A stretch of DNA of 64,000 nt from Octopus vulgaris (lineage: Eukaryota). The notes beneath the pieces are model-generated. The model worked only from the letters and a program-made list of their open reading frames with translations. It was not told where the DNA came from and searched no databases. The stretch covers positions 43,338,001 through 43,402,000 of the forward strand of contig OX597833.1 of the NCBI GenBank assembly GCA_951406725.2. The letters are read 5' to 3'. Shown one piece after another: positions 2,005-64,000 of this stretch (the first letter of the stretch is position 1; each line of letters begins with the position of its first letter). A program made the position numbers and the translations under genes.

Positions 2005-2411
2005 AGGCGCAGGAGTAGCTGTGTGGTAAGTAGCTTGTTTACCAACCACATGGTTCCGGGTTCAGTCCCACTGTGTGGCACCTTGGGCAAGTGTCTTCTA
2101 TTATAGCCTCGGGCCGACCGAAAGCCTTGTGAGTGGATATGGTAGACGGAAACTGAAAGAAGCCCGTCGTATATATGTACATGTATATATGTGTGTGGGT
2201 GTTTGTGTGTCTCTGTTTTTCATCCTAGCATTGCTTGACAACCGATGCTGGTGTGTTTATGTCCCCGTTACTTAGCGGTTCGGCAAAGAGAGACTGATAG
2301 AATAAGTACTGGGCTTACAAAAGAATAAGTCCCGGGGTCGAGTTGCTCGATTAAAGGCAGTGCTCCAGCATGGCCGCAGTCAAATCACTGAAACAAGTAA
2401 AAGATAAAGAG
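2005..2411 (+). mobile_element. SINE family A (tRNA-like head, CORE-like box, internal microsatellite), near full length
   Basis: Head GGCGCAGGAGTAGCTGTGTGGTAAG with B-box-like GGTTCAGTCCC, then GCACCTTGGGCAAGTG; tail GGCCGCAGTCAAATCACTGAAACAAGTAAAAGA. Many homologous copies in the window. Confidence 0.85.
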
Positions 2412-2571
2412 TTATGCCTCTACCGCCATCACTTCGTCTCAAATAAATCCTATGGTTGTCACTGCTGATGTGAAAGTTGCCAATTGGTGCTCAGTACTTT
2501 TCTTGTGTTAATATCCAGGTGGCAGATTTCGTAAGTGTCCACTCCAATATCCCCACAATTGGTACTAGCAC

Positions 2572-2731
2572 TGTATGTATGTATGTATGTATGTATGTAT
2601 GTATGTATGTATGTATTTATGTATGTGTGTGTATGTATGTATGTATTTATGTATGTATGTATGTATGTATGCATGCATGTATGTATGTAAGTATGTATGT
2701 ATGCATGCATGTATGCATGTATGTATGTATG

Positions 2732-2762
<31 letters not shown>

Positions 2763-2938
2763 GAATATATGTATGCATGTAAGCATGTATGTATGTATAT
2801 ATGTATGCATGTGTGTATGTATGTATGTTTGTATGTATGCATGTATGTATGCATGCATGTATGTATGTATGTGTGTGTATGTATGTATGCATGTATATAT
2901 GTATGTATGTTTGTATGTATGCATGTATGTATGTATGC

Positions 2939-2971
<33 letters not shown>

Positions 2972-3012
2972 TGTATGTATGTATGTATGTATGTATGTAT
3001 GTATTATGTATG
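2572..3012. repeat. (TATG)n microsatellite, imperfect
   Basis: Direct reading; source of the YVCM/HTYI ORFs. Confidence 0.95.
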
Positions 3013-3274
3013 TGTTGTGTTATGTTTTGTGTTATAATGAAGACACGAATACATTCAATGCAGATTTTTCGTATAATCAGTCCTTTACTATGCAGCCACC
3101 TAGCAGAATCGATAGAACGTCGGAAAAATGTATTTTGCGATATTTGTTCCGGCTGTTAATATTCTGAGTTCAAATCTCGCCGTACATTTTTGACATAATC
3201 ACTGCAGTATGTAATAACAGCTCAAGAAACATATCTAAATAGAAGTCTACAAGGCAAGCATCCTATTCTGTTAT

Positions 3275-5066
3275 TCTTTTACTTGCGTCAGTAATGTGAC
3301 TGTGGCCATGCTGGGGCACCGCCTTTAGTCGAGCAAATCGACCGCAGGACTTATTCTTTGTAAGCCTAGTACTTATTCTCTCGGTCTCTCTTGCCGAACC
3401 GCTAAGTTACGTGGACGTAAACACACTAGCATCGGTTGTCAAAACGTTGCTTACTTTTCACTCAACCATATATACATATACCAGCAGAGGTACCCGGCGT
3501 TGCTCGGGATTAAAAGAACATAGTTTGTATACATGTTACAGTTATGTTGAAACAGGTGATACAGGAAAGTGCAGCATTGATGGCAAAACATTTGTGGAGT
3601 AGCTGATGGGCTAATTCGACTAAGCGACATGCCATTCGTCCGTTTGGAGTATTCCAGGTCGTAACCTGTCATGGAGAATTGGAGGTGGGGGCTATATGAT
3701 TTTTGAAAACACCGGAAAGCTGTCAGTAGATATACTCTCCTTTGCAGCAGTCGGCGCTGCTGTCTAATACGACCCATCGTCTGAAGTTTGGACGCCTCCT
3801 TTGGGTTTGTTGTCCTATAACACTCATAAAGTAAATTTAGAGGAACTGTGGCTGTTCATTTGTGGGTAACAGGGAAGCAATGAGGTAATTGACTTGCCCT
3901 TGAACTTTGAACGTCGGTGTTTTTCCATGTTCAATTATCTCCTTAGATGCACCAAACGATGTTATTTGAATCGCAGGGTTGTATTGTCTGATATTGTTCA
4001 GAAAATCCTTTGACTGGATGGAGGTACTCTCCAGAAGACCCATTAGAGGTTGCGGAGGTTCTGGTAGTTCTGGCAATCTTACCTTACCTCCTGGGCAGCA
4101 CATGTCATTAGTTTTATTTGGAAACTTTAAAGCTTTGCAGAAACGACAATTTGAGTTTAGTACACCAATTTGGACAAAATTATCATTTTTATAAGAATGG
4201 GATAGATCATATCTGAAAGCAGTTCCAGGGGTTGTGAAGAACGAATTTGTACGTAGTCTATTCGACCGCTAGTCTATTGGACCGCTAGTCTATTGGACCA
4301 CTGTCTAATCAGTAAAACGTTGTTTTAATGATTCAGCATTAAGTGCAGTAACATGCCTTTGCTGATGTTGGGAAAGTCTCATCTCCCTTCTCTCTTCAGA
4401 CTCCATCTGACGTGTTGTAGCATGTATTCGCTGATCTTGGGAAAGTCTAATCTCCCTCCACTCATCAGACGCCAACTGACTTGCTGTAGCATACCTTTGC
4501 TGATCTTGAGAAAGCCTCATCGCGCTTCTGTTTTGAGACTGCATTTGATGTGCTGTAGCATGCGTATGTTGATCTTGGGTAAGTCTCATAAATATAATAG
4601 AAATAAGATGATCTTAGTGTTATCACATTAGAATTAAAAGTGGAAGAATAAAAGTGAAACAATATTATATCACATTACAGTATAGATCTTATTCTTTCAC
4701 TTTTGACACGCAATACCAAACCAGTGCCAATGTTATATTGATTTAATCCAAATGAAACAAAAATTACATGTTGTCACTTATGGGGTCTGATACTATTACC
4801 TTGTAAAATTTGATTTGATTTGGTCGAGCCGTTTGAGAATGCATAGGGAACAGAGACACAAAGAATTTTATATGTATGTATAGATACACACACACACACA
4901 CACATACAACGGGTTACTTTCAGTTTCCATCTGCCAAATTCACTCACAAGGCTGTGGAAGGCTCAAGGCTTTAGAAGATATTTGCCCAAGGTGCCACGCA
5001 GTAGGACTGAACACGAAGCCATATGGTTGGAAAGCAAGCTTCTTACCACAGAGCCACGCCTACGCG
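3275..5066 (-). mobile_element. SINE family A copy split by a Helitron
   Basis: The 3' half at ~3275-3450 and the 5' half at ~4900-5066 match the reverse complement of 2005-2411; the Helitron lies between them. Confidence 0.8.
3481..4884 (-). mobile_element. Internally deleted Helitron with a RepHel N-terminal remnant
   Basis: On the minus strand it begins A|TCTATACATACATATAAAATT (4884) and ends with hairpin CCCGAGCAACGCCGGG plus CTGG|T (CTRR, 3481). It encodes ~22-aa repeats (RLSQDQQRHATA...; 4305-4589) and CCPGGKVRLPELPEPPQPL...IRQYN...TSFGA...PTFKVQGQV..IASLLP...PQFL (3837-4103), the conserved Helitron N-terminal block. Confidence 0.9.
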
Positions 5067-5965: not shown

Positions 5966-6084
5966 GCTTACGGCCGTATCACGTGAAAGCTCCAGTTCTC
6001 GTCTGATCACCGTAGTTAAGCAACATCGAGCCTAGTGAGTACTTAGACGAGTGACCGTTTGGGAAAACCTAGGTGCTGTAAGCA
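5966..6084 (+). pseudogene. 5S rRNA pseudogene / orphan copy
   Basis: 119 nt, GCTTACGGCCGTATCACG...CTCGTCTGATCACCGTAGTTAAGCAA...AGTACTTAGACGAGTGACC...TGGGAAAACC..GGTGCTGTAAGC, colinear with metazoan 5S. Box C is diverged, there is no oligo-T terminator and it is not in an array. Confidence 0.88.
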
Positions 6085-6705: not shown

Positions 6706-8825
6706 ATATGCATGTTGTGTCTATGAATGTGGGTAAGTACAAGTCTGTAAAATACATGAATGTGTGTATCTGTGAAGACATGCATCTGTACATCTATGAA
6801 TGTGTGCATGTGTTACCTATATGGTGACCTGTGAAATATAGCAGCATTGTTGTTGTTGTTATTTTTCGAAGACCTTTGCAGTCCCTTGGAGACTAACGGA
6901 ACCGATGCCATTAACGAACGCCATATGTCCTTTAAGCAATTTCCTTTAACCTTCTACCGCATACGTTCTCTCTCTTTCTCTCTCTCTATTTCACTTCCTC
7001 TCCTTTTCGCTGTCTTCTCCCCTCCTCCTTTTATCTTTCTTATCTCTTTCTTCTCTCCTCTTTCTTTCCATACAAACACACAAACACAAAAACAAACATA
7101 TACACATCCAAATATACACATGAAGTTCAACAGTACCATCCGACCATTCGGCGCCGCCATTTACCCCTCTCTCATCTCACACCCTCATCTCATTCTTTAC
7201 GCCGCGAACTGATGAATGGGCCAACAGCTACTCACTCGATCTGCTAGAAATATAACCAAATTTCCCTCAAACCACATCTGAACGTAGGGTTTCTTGTACA
7301 TGAGTAAAAAACACAAGATAGTTATTTGCTGGAACGCCTTTGATCATAGGTCTACGTGATCCGGTTGACCTAGAGTTAAACAGTAGCAGCAACAGCAACG
7401 ACGTGGATAACAACAACAACAACAACAGCAACAACAGCAACAACAACAACAACAACAACACAACAAACAACAACAAAAACAGCAAAAACAGCAACACAAC
7501 AAACAACAATAACAATAAACCATATGCCACCAAATCTGTCACCACGATAAGGAAACTAGATTTTTTAGAGATCAATCGGTCTATAATGACTTAACCGTTC
7601 GTCAAATGGTTTAAATAGCCCACCCATTACCAAACCACCACTACAACGCCCATCACTACCACCGCCACCACCACTATCACCATCACCACCATCACCATCA
7701 TCATCGTTATCATCATCATCATCGTTGTCACCATGTCCTAATACGATCACCACCATCATCCCAACCGCCGCCACCAATACTATCACCATTGCCACCACAA
7801 TCACAACCACAACCGCCACCATCACCATCACTACCATTACCTGCACTATCACCATCGCCATGATCAACATCACTGCAAACACCTCCACTATCGACATTAC
7901 GGCCCATTACCGCCCGTCACAATTACAACAATCGTTGCCATTTAACATCAACGCCACCACCTTCAACATCAACATCATCCATACCGCAACAAACATTTCC
8001 GCCGCCGCCACCACGTCACTACCACTACCACTACCATGGCCAACATCATTTCACAGACTTTGCGAGCAAGCACTTCCAGAACTAACACACATGCACACAT
8101 CACTTCCACGATCACCTCCACCTCATCCACCTTTTCTTCAACCTTCTCTTTCTCTTCTTCTTCTACTTCTTCCTCCTCCTCCTCCTCCTCCACTACCACC
8201 TCCACCACTACCAGAAACACACCTACTACTGCCACACCCAAAGATCTGACAGCGTCTCATGTGACAAGTGTCACAGATAATAGTGGAATTAAAGGGAGGG
8301 GGAGAAGTTGTAAGGGGAGGAGGAGAGATTTGAAGGTTACACCGAAAATGTTTACACATGCGCACACAAACGCAAACATGTGTGCGTATATAAGTATGCA
8401 CGTGTGTATATATACGTATGTATGCACACATTCATGTATATATGTATGTGTGGTTTGTGTATATGTGTATATGATTGTATGTATGTACATTTGTATGTAT
8501 ATGTGTATGTAGATGTATGTATGCATGCATGTATGTATCTATGTTTGTATGTTTCTTTGTTCGACCAACCACTGTCTGCTCTGCTTTACTTCAGTCGCGC
8601 AAGACTTTCAATGTTTATTTGTTATCTTTCATTATTCTGCCCAGTGCTTTGTTTGATTTGACTAAAACAGCTTATTATTCTTTTTCGTGCTCTGTCTCGT
8701 GATATGTACGCCCAATCTCAAGTCCCTTCTCTTAATCCTTTGTTATCATCCTGTTTTTTCAAGCGCCGAAATCGTAATGACTTTGGATAAAAGTTAGCTG
8801 ATATAACGGTATTACCCGCATCTTA

Positions 8826-9243
8826 AGGCGGCGAGCTGGCAGAAACGTTAGCACGCCAGGCGAAATGCTTAGCGGTATTTCGTCTGCCGCTACGTTCTGA
8901 GTTCAAATTCCGCCGAGGTCGACTTTGCCTTTCATCCTTTCGGGGTCGATTAAGTAAATACTAGTTATGCACTGGGGTCGATATAATCGACTTGATCCGT
9001 TTGTCTGTCCTTGTTTGCCCCCTCTATGTTTAGCTCCTTGTGGGCAATAAAGAAATAGGTATTTCGTCTGCCGCTACGTTCTGAGTTCAAATTCCGCCGA
9101 GGTCCACTTTGCCTTTCATCCTTTCGGGGTCGATTAAATAAGTACCAGTTACACACTGGGGTCGATATAATCGACTTAATCCGTTTGTCTGTCCTTGTTT
9201 GTCCTCTCTGTGTTTAGTCCCTCGTGGGTAGTAAAGAAATAGA
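8826..9243 (+). mobile_element. SINE family B dimer with a 14-bp target-site duplication
   Basis: Body repeats at 8874 and 9058 (184-bp period); TSD TATTACCCGCATCT at 8810-8823 and 9244-9257. Confidence 0.92.
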
Positions 9244-48796: not shown

Positions 48797-49205
48797 TATT
48801 TCTTTACTACCCACAAGGGGCTAAACACAAAGTGGACAAACGAGGACAGACAAACGGATTAAGTCGATTACATCGACTCCAGTGCGTAACTGGTACTTAA
48901 CTTATCGACCCCGAAAGGATGAAAGGCAAAGTCGACCTCGGTGGAATTTGAACTCAGAACGTAACGGCAGACGAAATACCTATTTCTTTATTACCCACAA
49001 GGGGCTAAACATAGAGAGGACAAACAAGGACAGACAAACGGATTAAGTCGATTACATCGACCCCCAGTGAGTAACTGGTACTTAATTTATCGACCCCGAA
49101 AGGATGAAAGGCAAAGTCGACCTCGGTGGAATTTGAACTCAGAACGTAACGGCAGACGAAATACTGCTAAGTATTTCGCCCGGCGTGTTCACGTTTCTGC
49201 CAGCT
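48797..49205 (-). mobile_element. SINE family B dimer
   Basis: Two tandem bodies and one head. Confidence 0.88.
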
Positions 49206-49776: not shown

Positions 49777-49931
49777 ATGGACGTTCCGGCTGGAAATGAC
49801 AAGACGTCCATACATGAATATAGACATACAGCGCCCAGTGTTGTTCCTGAATTGGTGTCGGAGTTCTGTCAAGAAACCAGTCTGCATGGGGTGCGAAACG
49901 CGTATGATTCCAAAAAATACAAACTTCGAGG
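49777..49931 (+). CDS. DEG/ENaC (ASIC-like) channel, coding exon 1 (not in the ORF track)
   Basis: ATG at 49777 reads MDVPAGNDKTSIHEYRHTAPSVVPELVSEFCQETSLHGVRNAYDSKKYKLR(G), containing the conserved pre-TM1 F..xTSLHG motif. Donor GG|GTGAGT, phase 2, joins 55451 in frame. Confidence 0.88.
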
Positions 49932-51917: not shown

Positions 51918-52695
51918 ATTCTTCTCTACTCTAGGCACAAGGCCCGAGATTTTGGGGGAGGGAGCCACTCGATTATATCGACCCCGGTACGCAACTGGTA
52001 CTTAATTTATCGGCCCCGAAAGGATGAAGGGCAAGGTCAACCTCGGAGGAATTTGAACTCAGAACGTAAAGACAAAATACCTATTTCTTTACTACCCACA
52101 AGGGCCTAAACACAGTGGGGATAAGCAAGGACAGACAAACAGATTAAGTCGACTATATCGACCCCAGTGCGTAACTGGTACTTATTTAAACGACCCCGAA
52201 AGGATGAAAGGCAAAGTCGACCTCGGCGGAATTTGAACTCAGAACGTAGCGGCAGACGAAATACCTATTTCTTTACTACCCACAAGGGGCTAAAGACAGA
52301 GAGGACAAACAAGAACAGACAGACGGATTAAGTCGATTATATCGACCCCAGTGCGTAACTGGTACTTAATTCATCGACCCCGAAAGGATGAAAGGCAAAG
52401 TAGACCTCGGTGGAATTTGAACTCAGAACGTAATGGCAGACGAAATACAGCTACGCATTTCGCCCGGCGTGCTAACATTTCTTAATACTGCCAACAATTT
52501 TTTTCTACTCTAAGCACAAGGCCCGAAATTTTGTGTAAGGGGACCGGTCGATTAGATTGACACCAATACGCAACTGGTACTTAATTTATCGACCTCGAAA
52601 GGATGAAAGGTAAAGTCGACTTTGGCGGAATTTGAATTCAGAACGTAAAGACGGACGAAATACTGCTAAGTATTTCGCCCGGCGTGCCAACGCTT
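51918..52695 (-). mobile_element. SINE family B multimer (three bodies) plus an adjacent variant copy
   Basis: CGACCCCGAAAGGATGAAAGGCAAAGTCGACCTCGG repeats about every 180 bp. Confidence 0.85.
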
Positions 52696-53939: not shown

Positions 53940-54302
53940 CTTTCTACTATAGGCACAAGGCCTGAAATTTGGTGGGAGGGGGCCATTCGATTATATCGAC
54001 CCCAGTACGCAGCTGGTAGTTAATTCATCAACCCCGAAAAGATGAAAGGCAAAGTCGACTTCGGTGGAATTTGAACTCAGAATATAGCGACGGGCGAAAT
54101 ACATATTTCTTTACTACCCACAAGGGGCTAAACACAGAGAGGACAAACAATGACAGACAAACGGATTAAGGCTATTATATCGACCCCAGTGCATAACAGG
54201 TACTTATTTAATCGACCCCGAAAGGATGAAAGGCAAAGTCGACCTCGGCGGAATTTGAACTCAGAACGTAACGGCAGGCGAGATACGGCTATGCATTTCG
54301 CC
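53940..54302 (-). mobile_element. SINE family B dimer
   Basis: Two bodies; followed by a SINE A 3' half at 54310-54490. Confidence 0.83.
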
Positions 54303-55450: not shown

Positions 55451-56021
55451 AGTGGTGTGGTCTGTGGCCCTCATCTGTATGACATTTACCATGATTATCT
55501 CAATGGCAGATATATTTACTGAATTTTACCAATACCCGCTTCTCACCCGAATCAATGTCGGATTTGCCGAAAAGCTGCCTTTCCCTGCTGTCACATTGTG
55601 CAATTTAAACCCGGTTGATCGTACGAAGGTAGAATTCAAAAAACTGGAGCCGTACTTTCTAGCTTTCACTCAGATTGATGACAATGTGAGCAAATCTCTC
55701 ATTAATTGGGATGACCCTGCACTACTACCTTTCAAACTACCCATGAATAAAAGCTACGTGCGTCAAATCAGCCCCAATTTAAATTCGATGTTATATTCAT
55801 GTCTGTGGGAAGGAAAATATTTGAAGTCGAAATGTTCGAAGAATTTCACTGAAAATTTTACAGAATTGGGTATCTGTTATACGTTTAACAGCGCCAGCTA
55901 CAGTGAACTCTACGGACCGCTGTACACGTCACACACAGGTAGCAGTACTGGGTTAGTACTCTATTTTTACATCAACGAAAGCACTTACATTTACAATGAA
56001 GACATGGCATCTGGTGTTAAG
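55451..56021 (+). CDS. DEG/ENaC (ASIC-like) channel, coding exon 2 (TM1 and start of ectodomain)
   Basis: Acceptor TTACTTTCAG|A; VVWSVALICMTFTMII…FYQYP…LPFPAVTLCNLNP…MLYSCLWEG…ELGICYTFN…GSSTGLVL…GVK; donor AAG|GTAAGT. Confidence 0.95.
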
Positions 56022-56114: not shown

Positions 56115-56213
56115 ATCTTACTACATCATCCACAAGAAGTACCCGATGCAAAGAGGGAAGGAATTTTCATGTCGCCTGGTTTTGCAACAAGAGTCAACCT
56201 GAAATTTCTTAGT
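56115..56213 (+). CDS. DEG/ENaC (ASIC-like) channel, coding exon 3
   Basis: After a 93-bp intron (acceptor TTGACAG|), reads ILLHHPQEVPDAKREGIFMSPGFATRVNLKFLS in phase 0; donor GTGAGT at 56214. Confidence 0.93.
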
Positions 56214-56518: not shown

Positions 56519-56881
56519 TATTTCTTTACTTCCCACAAGGGGCTAAACATAGTGCGTCAATGGTTCTTATTTAATCGACCCCAAAAGGATGAAAGGCAAA
56601 GTCGACCTCGGCGGAATTTGAGCTCAGAACGTAACGGCAGACGAAATACCTATTTCTTTATTACCCACAAGGGGCTAAACACAGAGGGGACAAACAAGGA
56701 CAGACATAGGTATTAAGTTGATTACATCGACTCCAGTGCGTAACTGGTACTTAATTTATCGACCCCGAAAGGGTGAAAGGCAAAGTCGACCTCGGCGGAA
56801 TTTGAACTCAGAACGTAACGGCAGACGAAATACCGCTATGCATTTCGCCCGGTGTGCTAACGTTCCTGCCAGCTCGCCGCC
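56519..56881 (-). mobile_element. SINE family B dimer
   Basis: Two bodies and one head; TTTTTCCTAGT-like duplication at both ends. Confidence 0.85.
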
Positions 56882-59928: not shown

Positions 59929-59962
<34 letters not shown>

Positions 59963-60140
59963 ATAATAAATATTAGGGAATAAATCCAAATTTACAGGGA
60001 AAAAATCAGATTTAGGATTAAATCCAATTTTATAGTAAAATATTATATAATATTATTAGAGACAAAACCACTATTTTGCAAAACAAACAAGGAAAGACTT
60101 AATCAATACATAAAATTTTAATAAAAAGTCAAAAAAACCG

Positions 60141-60183
60141 CCACTACAATTGTTTCTTGTCCTGATCGACAATCTTCAGGTGG
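60141..60183 (-). ncRNA. Canonical minimal type I hammerhead ribozyme (inverted copy)
   Basis: Exact reverse complement of 63102-63144. Confidence 0.88.
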
Positions 60184-60272
60184 ACTTCCAATCTAAAATA
60201 TCAATATTTTAAAATATAAAAATAATAATTTTAAAATAATTAAAGTATTAATGAAAAAATATAAATATATAT

Positions 60273-60492
60273 ATTTCTTTATTGCCCACAAGGGGCTAAA
60301 CATAGAGGGGACAAACAAGGACAGACGAAGGGATTAATTCGATTATATCGCCCCCAGTGCGAAACTGGTACTTTATTTATCGACCCCGAAAGGATGAAAG
60401 GCAAAGTTGACCTCGGCGGAATTTGAACTCAGAACGTAACGACAGACGAAATACCGCTAAGCATTTCGCCCGGCGCGCTAACGTGTCTGCCA
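60273..60492 (-). mobile_element. SINE family B inserted in the left inverted arm only
   Basis: Absent from the corresponding position (~63000-63025) of the right arm. Confidence 0.88.
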
Positions 60493-63101
60493 TATATATA
60501 ACCTATATATAATCCATATATAATCAATATATAAACAATATATAAACTAAAATAAACCTATCAACAATTAAATATAAAACAAAACAAAAAATAAACTATA
60601 TATACACCCATACACATATAACTAATTATATATGACCATATCTAAATACATACACTAAATCACACACCTATATATATATCCCTATACATACACATAAAAA
60701 CGTCTAGGCAACGATAAATAAATAAAATAGCCAAATACTTCAACACAATACTTATTCATACTCCCTCACACACACATACAACCCACATTCCCGCTCTAGA
60801 AACGAACATCATTTTTTTTATATATCGTATTATGTGTAATAATGTTGTTTTTCTTTGGAGTGTTTATGTATGTGGGAATGTGTGTAAGTATGTGTGTATT
60901 TTAGTTGTATAATTTATTTATCTGTATGAGTGTGGGTGTGTAAATATTGTTGTATATATCGAGTTTAGTGAGTATGTATATGCGTATATGTGAGGGAGTA
61001 TATGTATATGTTGTGTGTGTGTGTGTTTTACGTATGTATATTTGTGTGTGAATGTGTATATGGGTTTGTTATATAGGTTTGGGGATGTATGTGTTAATTT
61101 ATCTGTGTGGGGTGGGAGTGGGTTTTTGGTGTATATTGAGGTTTATACGTTAGTATAGGTATGTGTGAGTGAGGTGGGTATTTGTATAAGTCGTGGGTCT
61201 GTGGTTTACGTGTGTGTATTTGTGTGTGAATGTTTAGGTTAGGGGGATTGCTATATAGGTTTGTTATAGAGTTTAGCAAAGGGAGATTTTATCATTATAT
61301 GTTTTTATGAGTTTTAATTTATCATGGTAGTTTTATTAAAGAATTCGTAGTAATTTGTCTATTTACGATGTTTGTTATTTTATTACATTATTTCATTCAT
61401 AATTTTTAAGTAATGTTCGTTTTACCACGTGAATATAATTTTTAATTCCATTTATTCCATTTCTCCATTCATAATTTTAAAAGATGTTCGTTTCCAGAGC
61501 GGGAATACTTTTTATACATATGTTAGGTTCCTTGGTAACGTAATTTTGTTTGGTGTATATGTTGAGGCTTATATGTACTTATAGGTATGTGTGAATGAGG
61601 TGGGTATTTGTATTTGTTATGGGTGTGTGGTTTACGTGTGTGTATTTGTGTGTGAATGTATAGGTTAAAGGGATTGCTATATAGGTATGTTATAGGGTTT
61701 AGTAAAGGGAGGTTTTATCATTTATGTTTTTATGAGTTTTAATTTATCATGGTAGTTTTATTAAAGAATCCATTCATAATTTTTTAAAATAATGTTAGTT
61801 TACCGCGTGAATATAATTTTTAATTCCATTTATTCTATTTCTCCATTCATAATTTTAAATGAAGTTTGTTTCCATAGCGCGTATTCTTTTTATACATATG
61901 TTAGGTTCCTATGGTAACGTAATTTTGGTTTGATGTTTTTAACGGCTTAGAATTTAATTTCACTTCATAATTTGAAACTGACTTGAAAGTATGTATATTA
62001 TTTCTCCTTAGGTCATATTGTTATTTTTGATATTCTGGTTACTTACGATGTATTTTATATATCGTATTATGTGTAATAATGTTGTTTTTCTTGGAGTGTT
62101 TATGTATGTGGGATTGTGTGTGAGTGTGTGCGTATTTTAGTTGTATAATTTATTTATCTGTATGAGTGTGGGTGTGTTAATATTGTTGTATATATCGAGT
62201 TTAGTGAGTATGTATATGTATATGGTGTGTGTTTTACGTATGTATATTTGTGTGTGAATGTGTTTATGGGTTTGCTATATAGGTTTGGGGATGTATGTGT
62301 TTATTTATCTGTGTGGGGTTGAGTGGGTTTTTGGAGTATATATTGAGGTTTATATGTATGTATAGGTATGTGTGAGTGAGGTGGGTATTTGTATATGTCG
62401 TGGGTCTGTGGTTTACGTGTGTGTATTTGTGTGTGAATGTTTAGGTTTAGGGGGATTGCTATATAGGTATGTTATAGAGTTTAGTAAAGGGAGATTTTAT
62501 CATTATATGTTTTTATGAGTTTTAGTTTATCATGGTAGTTTTATTAAAGAATTCGTAGTAATTTATGTCTATTTACGATGTCTGTTATTTTATTACATTA
62601 TTTCATTCATAATTTTTAAGTAATGTTCGTTTTACCAAGTGAATATAATTTTTAATTCCATTTATTCCATTTCTCCATTCATAATTTTAAATGATGTTCG
62701 TTTCTAGAGCGGGAATGTGGGTTGTATGTGTGTGTGAGGGAGTATGAATAAGTATTGTGTTGAAGTATTTGGCTATTTTATTTATTTATCGTTGCCTAGA
62801 CGTTTTTATGTGTATGTATAGGGATATATATATAGGTGTGTGATTTAGTGTATGTATTTAGATATGGTTATATATAATTAGTTATATGTGTATGGGTGTA
62901 TATATAGTTTATTTTTTGTTTTGTTTTATATTTAATTGTTGATAGGTTTATTTTAGTTTATATATTGTTTATATATTGATTATATATGGATTATATATAG
63001 GTTATATATAGATTATATATTTATATTTTTTCATTAATACTTTAATTATTTTAAAATTATTATTTTTATATTTTAAAATATTGATATTTTAGATTGGAAG
63101 T

Positions 63102-63144
63102 CCACCTGAAGATTGTCGATCAGGACAAGAAACAATTGTAGTGG
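63102..63144 (+). ncRNA. Canonical minimal type I hammerhead ribozyme
   Basis: CCAC-CUGAAGA-UUGUC(GAUCAG)GACAA-GAAA-CAAUUG-UA-GUGG: all core nucleotides intact, palindromic stem III ACAAUUGU, GUA triplet (cleavage after 63140). Confidence 0.9.
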
Positions 63145-63263
63145 CGGTTTTTTTGACTTTTTATTAAAATTTTATGTATTGATTAAGTCTTTCCTTGTTT
63201 GTTTTGCAAAATAGTGGTTTTGTCTCTAATAATATTATATATATATATATATATATACACATA

Positions 63264-64000
63264 CACTACCGTCAGAAATTAATTAGCACCCTTGATTTGC
63301 TCTTCACTCAAGGTATTTGCTGTCACCTAGTGGCCATACCTCGAACTATTGCTTTGTTGCGAGTTCACTGTTGCGCAGAACGATGACGTAACTTTGTTTG
63401 CAGAGCGATTTGAGAGTCTACAGCCTAATGATGTTGACATAGCAGTGCAACAACAACTTGGAGTGCGGATGCAGACAAATCTTCCTTTGTTTAATAGATA
63501 TAGGTAGCGCCTCGCAAGGACCGAAATCACACCATACTAAGTTTTCTCATCGCGTAAGACGTTTTGAACAGCTCGTAGGTTAATTGATTTGTGTATTTGC
63601 AAGACTTTTTTTCCTCACAAATTCTCCTACACTCTGCTTTGTGACGTCACTTCCGGTCCACAAAACTTTCTGTTATACATCAAATAAGGTGAGAAATTCT
63701 GCTTTCTTTCTTTTTTTGTTTAATGAATAATAACTCATAGTAGTTTTGTTATAGCATAACATTATTCAAATGAATAGTTTTAATGAAAATAACTGGTTTT
63801 TATCGTTCATTCCTAGATGGGCCCAAGACCTCGCATGACCTTGGAGAGACGGTACGAGGCTCTCTCGTGGCGTGACAAGCTGTCGGAGGTTGCAATAGCC
63901 AGAAAACTTGGTGTAGCCAGGCGCACAATTCAGTGCTTATTTAAGAAATACGAGGAAACCGGATCAGCAGCTGACAAAAACGGTAGGGGACGGAAGAGGC
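63264..64000 (+). mobile_element. Tc1-like transposon 5' end; transposase ORF open from 63817 to the window edge
   Basis: TA|CACTACCGTCAGAAATTAATTAGCACCC TIR-like start; MGPRPRMTLERRYEALSWRDKLSEVAIARKLGVARRTIQCLFKKYEETGSAADKNGRGRKR is a paired-like HTH with a GRPR-like motif. Confidence 0.85.

Follow-up and report, generated by a model that had tools for sequence, protein, structure and literature searches.

A hammerhead pair in an octopus DEG/ENaC intron read as a recent Penelope-like insertion, with probable ADAR scars in a sister branch of the family

Penelope-like elements (PLEs) of the Hydra clade, among them Hydra-1_Obim of octopus, have been described (Craig et al. 2021, PMC8557442, with the motifs in its section 11) as carrying RxxWK, DKT, CxCx5C, CxxC-E and CxH motifs and no CCHH, a canonical hammerhead, a preference for (TA)n targets, partial tandems, an inverted truncated copy and a tail of 30–40 nt at one end; their short length, generally <3 kb, appears there as a tendency and not as a diagnostic. 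The type I hammerheads of metazoan PLEs (Cervera and De la Pena 2014, PMC4209133) are a motif of the pseudo-LTR (pLTR), have a short helix I and a palindromic helix III, occur in opposite-strand pairs and are expected to depend on dimers, the monomer being described there as giving no cleavage. In vitro work on PAc, a Poseidon element and thus of another clade (Frangieh et al. 2024, PMC11167929), showed that two RT start sites define the tail and that both strands of AT-rich DNA are cut, with a hammerhead that needed protein and was dispensable for insertion. Two further precedents concern RNA editing: inverted repeats are generally edited and octopus hyper-editing is very strong (PMC5625713), and for the avian retroviruses RAV and ALV a review (PMC12925331) describes ADAR-type A-to-G changes in an inverted repeat of reverse-transcribed RNA, recorded in DNA.

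We analysed a window of 64,000 nt from Octopus vulgaris (contig OX597833.1), in which an earlier note had pointed out a perfect-core hammerhead and its exact reverse complement within inverted arms of about 550 bp. Both hammerheads are present, as the sole two such motifs in the window, and the arms indeed match over two blocks (Table 1); the left arm is interrupted by a SINE-like repeat and also bears a tail of ~85 nt that the right arm lacks, neither of which the earlier note mentions. We are confident that 59960–63241 represents one recent insertion of a Hydra-clade PLE into intron 3 of a DEG/ENaC channel gene, with a ribozyme that is likely silent in the host pre-mRNA. This reading is based on a sequence identical to the 3′ region of elements of 7.2 kb that encode an 840-aa RT plus GIY-YIG protein, on one long (tailed) and one short end, and on contigs in which exons 3 and 4 are spliced.

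Table 1. Features of the insertion and its host gene, in window positions
Feature	Position	Strand	Remark
DEG/ENaC exon 1, coding part	49777–49931	+	
DEG/ENaC exon 2	55451–56021	+	TM1, PF00858
DEG/ENaC exon 3	56115–56213	+	
(TA)n target, left side	59930–59959		
PLE tail, on left arm only	59960–60043	−	continues, in full copies, into the 5′ UTR that precedes the ORF; aligns with L044 2186–2280 and 9024–9128
Left arm, outer part (pseudo-LTR)	60044–60271	−	inverted copy of 63014–63241, 0 mismatches in 228 nt
Left-arm type I hammerhead	60141–60183	−	antisense in channel pre-mRNA
SINE-like repeat within left arm	60272–60492	−	221 nt, B-box-like motif; no clear target duplication
Left arm, inner part	60493–60814	−	inverted copy of 62689–63010, 1 mismatch in 322 nt
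Right arm, 5′-truncated PLE copy	60816–63241	+	short end, no tail; G/T-rich internally repeated 3′ UTR plus pseudo-LTR; 96.5% identical to L044 6580–9028, 99.1% to L060
Right-arm type I hammerhead	63102–63144	+	predicted cut 63140/63141
(TA)n target, right side	63242–63262		
Broken Tc1/mariner transposon, start	63263–64000	+	adjoins the insertion, separate from it
DEG/ENaC exons 4–8, starts	65252, 69962, 73877, 76982, 78023	+	extended coordinates, beyond the window

The hammerhead core is complete (CUGAAGA, GAAA, GUA) and three stems can be drawn, stem I as CCAC/GUGG, stem II as 5 bp closed by U-A, and stem III as 2 bp within the self-complementary ACAAUUGU; by sequence, the conserved core and three stems make this a type I hammerhead. 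It shares with the metazoan PLE hammerheads (PMC4209133) a place in the pLTR, the short helix I, the palindromic helix III, the opposite-strand pairs and the expected dependence on dimers. It departs from those described there in that stem II follows directly, with the unpaired base missing, and in having U-A, not G-C, at 10.1–11.1. Rfam at gathering threshold reported no hammerhead in the window, its only match being 5S rRNA (a single copy at 5966–6084, 75.9 bits, adjoining a SINE tandem). Free folding gave a stability no better than that of shuffles (z −0.3 to 0.3), and the hammerhead structure differs from the minimum-energy fold. The motif is nevertheless more than chance, since its 43-mer has 178 exact copies in the genome and the reversed control pattern has none.

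A 191-nt piece of the arm has 41 listed matches at 99–100% identity (1203 candidates, 40 scored). Identity of 99% between the window copy and copies on other chromosomes leads us to call the insertion young. The SINE-like repeat in the left arm has at least 12 relatives in the window and is 88–92% identical to the other window copies; on our reading it may be a tRNA-derived SINE. It is present in the left arm only, stands 8–12% off its neighbours and lacks a target duplication, while the arms are near-identical; it may have entered the left arm afterwards, from a subfamily still active, or have been captured as the arm was reverse-transcribed.

The window copy is 5′-truncated and has no ORF, so the element is better seen in the full copy L044, whose order is pLTR, 840-aa ORF (2325–4847), repeated 3′ UTR, pLTR and tail. 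Its two pLTRs (1961–2285 and 8799–9122) match and each holds a hammerhead, as expected of pseudo-LTRs arising from partial tandems. Elements of this type measure ~7.2 kb with a pLTR, on a unit of ~6.8 kb with ~4 kb of repeated 3′ UTR, and at least 10 other copies have frames >800 aa. The single ORF contains YRDD (RT) and, C-terminally, VY..YIG (GIY-YIG), where a single C separates the GIY half from the YIG half. Pfam on the 840-aa ORF itself found neither an RT nor a GIY-YIG domain, and a PDB sequence search with the protein named no domain; its relatives carry the GIY-YIG, RVT_1 and HTH_animal families. Named relatives of the proteins encoded here come from Octopus bimaculoides and Argonauta. 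The Hydra-clade motifs can be read as RIKWK at 42, DKT at 129, CTCRDKSNC at 692, CYLCSNE at 798 and CRH at 827, with no CCHH. An ORF with RT and GIY-YIG in full copies, hammerhead-bearing pLTR tandems, and an inverted truncated copy with a tail at one end are all what EN+ PLEs display, and the clade's preference for (TA)n appears in 84 of 85 ends running into TA-rich repeats, as judged by eye. By motifs, layout and target, with the reference proteins compared by eye, we class the element as a Hydra-clade EN+ Penelope-like retrotransposon.

It departs from the Hydra-clade elements of PMC8557442 in its greater length (unit ~6.8 kb, including ~4 kb of repeated 3′ UTR), in a tail of ~85–100 nt, and in an N-rich stretch between RT and EN; on comparison by eye of protein and hammerhead, it is a family separate from Hydra-1_Obim. 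The asparagine-rich stretch, encoded by (AAT)n at L044 3860–4100, resembles the N-rich inserts of rotifer Penelope ORFs (PMC3846280). We rejected three other candidates for the arms: a non-LTR retrozyme, because the internal repeats have no hammerhead and autonomous copies exist; a non-autonomous retrozyme or MITE, because autonomous copies share the sequence; and an assembly artefact, because many loci show the same layout.

That layout is the rule for the family. Among the first 100 listed of the 178 exact hammerhead copies, 42 lie in inverted pairs, and neighbours within 10 kb are minus/plus in 21 cases, plus/plus in one and plus/minus in none. In a set of 65 sequences we counted 44 long and 41 short ends, besides 13 pLTRs in internal position; every head-to-head neighbour pair in it, the window included, has one long and one short end (22/22), and two neighbours are tail to tail. 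The same PLE layout is described in PMC8557442 and PMC3846280, and a tail set by a pair of RT start sites is also what PAc showed in vitro (PMC11167929). Unlike in PAc, the two ends here lie ~100 nt apart, with one of each in every two-armed insertion scored. In the window, two 5′-truncated copies lie head to head in (TA)n, and the repeat with the hammerhead closes each of them. As to mechanism, we envisage that the element protein would nick both strands of (TA)n and prime two cDNAs from a single sense RNA, their start sites being ~100 nt apart; the two unfinished cDNA copies would then be joined.

We turn to the host gene. The earlier note had found the channel incomplete after exon 3, which holds inside the window only; exons 4–8 lie 1.2–14 kb beyond it. 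Mapping of homologues gives eight exons, which join into an open frame of 482 aa with GT-AG introns, a Cys-rich domain and TM2. The insertion does lie in intron 3, as had been suspected, with exon 4 now located downstream; this intron (56214–65251, 9038 nt) extends past the window. Splicing was judged from contigs assembled from four runs presumed to be RNA, from animals of whatever insertion genotype: intron 2 is spliced in contigs from all four runs, and exon 3 is joined to exon 4 in contigs from three of the four (two studies). The channel gene is intact and, on these presumed-RNA runs, transcribed. The case that would have undone the earlier note, a gene ending or a pseudogene before 59960, does not hold, and we rejected a pseudogene on the open frame and the splicing.

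Several other features of this gene deserve mention. The Tc1/mariner relic right of the insertion (continuing as L035 1–940) is broken and has imperfect terminal repeats; in a database gene model, P0018, its transposase is spliced to the channel and replaces exons 3–4, a join that the contigs do not show. An intronless DEG/ENaC paralogue with a 680-aa frame is found elsewhere in the genome (L061 815–2857). A SINE-like repeat of ~184 nt occurs in the channel gene at 48797–49202, 51969–52482, 53985–54302 and 56551–56871, in head-to-tail tandems and in both orientations, so that further duplexes in the pre-mRNA are possible.

In the channel pre-mRNA the antisense arm would emerge ahead of the sense arm; the two would pair and bury the hammerhead, which would in any case require either a dimer partner or the protein of the element. 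The stable arm duplex that the earlier note envisaged is possible, with predicted energies of −336 and −518 kcal/mol, whereas the ribozyme folded as a monomer reaches −5.5. No second sense hammerhead was found in the gene span 49000–79000. Since the predicted duplex far outweighs the ribozyme fold, since there is no second sense copy to serve as dimer partner, and since in relatives the monomer is described as inert (PMC4209133) or in need of protein (PMC11167929), this dimer-type ribozyme is probably silent in the channel pre-mRNA, as the earlier note had allowed. The duplex is also a likely ADAR substrate, as the earlier note had it; in line with inverted repeats at large (PMC5625713), it is probably edited as a bystander, a by-product of the arms' pairing.

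Might the insertion nevertheless affect its host? One alternative is an unselected side effect, in which the 550-bp duplex, with the adjoining Tc1 relic, interferes to a measurable degree with the splicing of intron 3, as by loss of exon 4. A single contig of depth 3 in run X11 does join exon 3 (56213) to exon 5; exon 4 is left out, the frame shifts and a stop follows after 286 aa. However, this is one contig in one of four runs, and the normal exon 3–4 join, present in three of four runs, has a depth of 6.8 in X11 too. We think such an effect unlikely.

The orientation of the hammerhead, stressed earlier as sense to the gene, carries no information, since a head-to-head pair gives antisense before sense whichever strand is read. 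The Cpeb3 ribozyme belongs to the HDV-like class. The weakest reading, which the earlier note raised as possible, is a co-opted switch in which the antisense arm and ADAR control cleavage so as to tune channel expression: the geometry permits it, an intronic self-cleaving motif in a gene of neuronal type modulates its host mRNA in Cpeb3 (PMC10919898), and octopus hyper-editing is very strong (PMC5625713), but the layout is the retrotransposon's orientation-neutral default, the insertion appears young and is one of hundreds of mobile copies lying in duplex (the Cpeb3 ribozyme is described as active and single-copy, with an effect shown), stem III is of the dimer type, U-A replaces the usual G-C as first pair of stem II, the gene has no second sense hammerhead and the contigs show normal exon 3–4 splicing, and we regard it as highly improbable. 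The locus is ordinary, and it cautions against reading octopus intronic hammerhead-plus-antisense pairs as switches.

Comparison of the family copies revealed a second phenomenon, which concerns a sister branch of the window copy. The L044-type elements contain an internal inverted repeat, produced by an inversion of ~960 nt, which would give a hairpin in the 3′ UTR; the segment is un-inverted in L094, L097, L100, L102 and L060. These loci were picked by similarity to one query, so the branch counts are not relative abundances. The right arm of the window belongs to the A-rich, unedited branch; the window copy is cut before the inversion, and its kinship (17 differences in 1811 nt to L094) suggests that it is un-inverted and unedited.

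Differences between A and G are concentrated in the 3′ UTR: among the variable columns that copies share, they account there for 27 of 43 and 86 of 177, and within the ORF for 18 of 89. When all 20 inverted-branch copies were compared by site with L094, the inverted segment had A>G at 112 of 389 sites and T>C at 1 of 171; 24 were fixed. Per copy and per ~900 nt, 38–81 A>G and 0–1 T>C were counted in the eight scored copies, the other 12 of 20 having fallen under an 84% identity filter, and in a single copy up to 81 of the 397 adenosines of one segment were changed. The partner repeats show 22–50 A>G per copy in 19 of the 20 inverted-branch copies (10 in one short match), against 0–3 in the nine scored un-inverted copies (three of 12 had no scorable repeat part), the window copy having two; flanks have 0–4 per copy. 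Set against the A-rich subgroup, the paired repeats are changed at 80 of 450 A and 6 of 922 T, and beyond the paired region at 6 of 182 A. The changes are A>G on the sense strand on both sides of the hairpin.

ADAR favours U or A over G as 5′ neighbour. By 5′ neighbour, our two comparisons gave 22 and 42% for U, 20 and 39% for A, 6 and 16% for C, and 6 and 8% for G. For the younger part of the arm, U faces 38 of 40 sites on the partner strand, and where the partner differs (24 and 28 mismatches) A>G is again the main change; for the older part, pairing would call for G at 15 of 23 sites. Among outgroup copies, A stands at 13/21, 1/1, 5/9 (twice) and 11/16 scar sites. Four-gamete conflicts were found for 575 of 2152 A/G comparisons and 12 of 252 at other sites, and these A/G tree conflicts fit repeated hits at the same sites. 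The sister branch, not the window copy, therefore displays A>G on one strand, confined to the duplex, on both of its sides and with avoidance of 5′ G. Hairpin energies of edited copies range from −153 to −185, against −178 for the unedited form, with some copies paired with the wrong partner. The inverted segment (L044 5277–6265) also has raised C>T, at 56 of 283 sites, in more derived subfamilies, which ADAR does not explain.

The scars are very probably of ADAR origin: ADAR would have edited the element RNA, and reverse transcription would have fixed the edits in DNA over several rounds. An origin in strand-biased RT errors combined with selection for pair-keeping G-U, or in loss by G>A in the A-rich branch, would accord with a sense strand that is G/T-skewed throughout, with the rise in C>T, with the mixed polarity of the older arm part, and with private (single-copy) changes, among which A>G is not in excess (19 of 319 A and 9 of 200 T in the inverted arm). 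Such an origin would, however, have to accommodate a repeat that is unchanged in the un-inverted branch, an ORF and pLTR that are unchanged in the inverted branch, the near absence of T>C, the avoidance of 5′ G, and changes on the same strand on both sides of the duplex with U opposite at 38 of 40 sites; we consider it improbable. ADAR editing remains our preferred reading, and quite likely the autonomous lineage, having acquired a hairpin by inversion in its ~3-kb 3′ UTR, had A-to-I edits copied repeatedly into germline DNA, by sense-RNA descent and with both arms of an insertion coming from one edited molecule, while the un-inverted sister stayed clean.

The element class, the hammerhead and the head-to-head layout are already known; to these the family adds the inversion, with an unedited sister branch, within an autonomous lineage. 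We found no description of ADAR edits fixed in PLE copies in the literature, most subscription papers lying outside our search. Compared with RAV and ALV (PMC12925331), the host of the putative edits is a germline retrotransposon with intact ORFs, the edits would be cumulative over rounds, and an unedited sister branch serves as control. If so, the family shows RNA edits passing directly into inherited DNA, in the group of animals that edits most heavily and with a control branch built in.

The scars also bear on the template. An antisense template was argued for Penelope in PMC3846280, which left sense versus antisense undecided; edit patterns, as barcodes on single template molecules, speak to that question. 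The scars lie on the ORF-sense strand (112 A>G against 1 T>C), so the RNA copied in the inverted-branch lineage was likely the sense transcript. The two arms of one insertion, moreover, share their pattern of G: L031 has 0 of 19 sites discordant (12 for the nearest other locus), L075 has 1 of 15, L092 has 2 of 17 and 0 of 11, and the tandem L044 has 0 of 16. Five other inverted pairs were uninformative, their neighbours being identical. One private source locus per insertion is an alternative explanation of matching arms; the simplest reading of the matching edit patterns, to our mind, is one template molecule per insertion. Two repeat units of L092 disagree at 12 of 21 sites and are possibly paralogous units.
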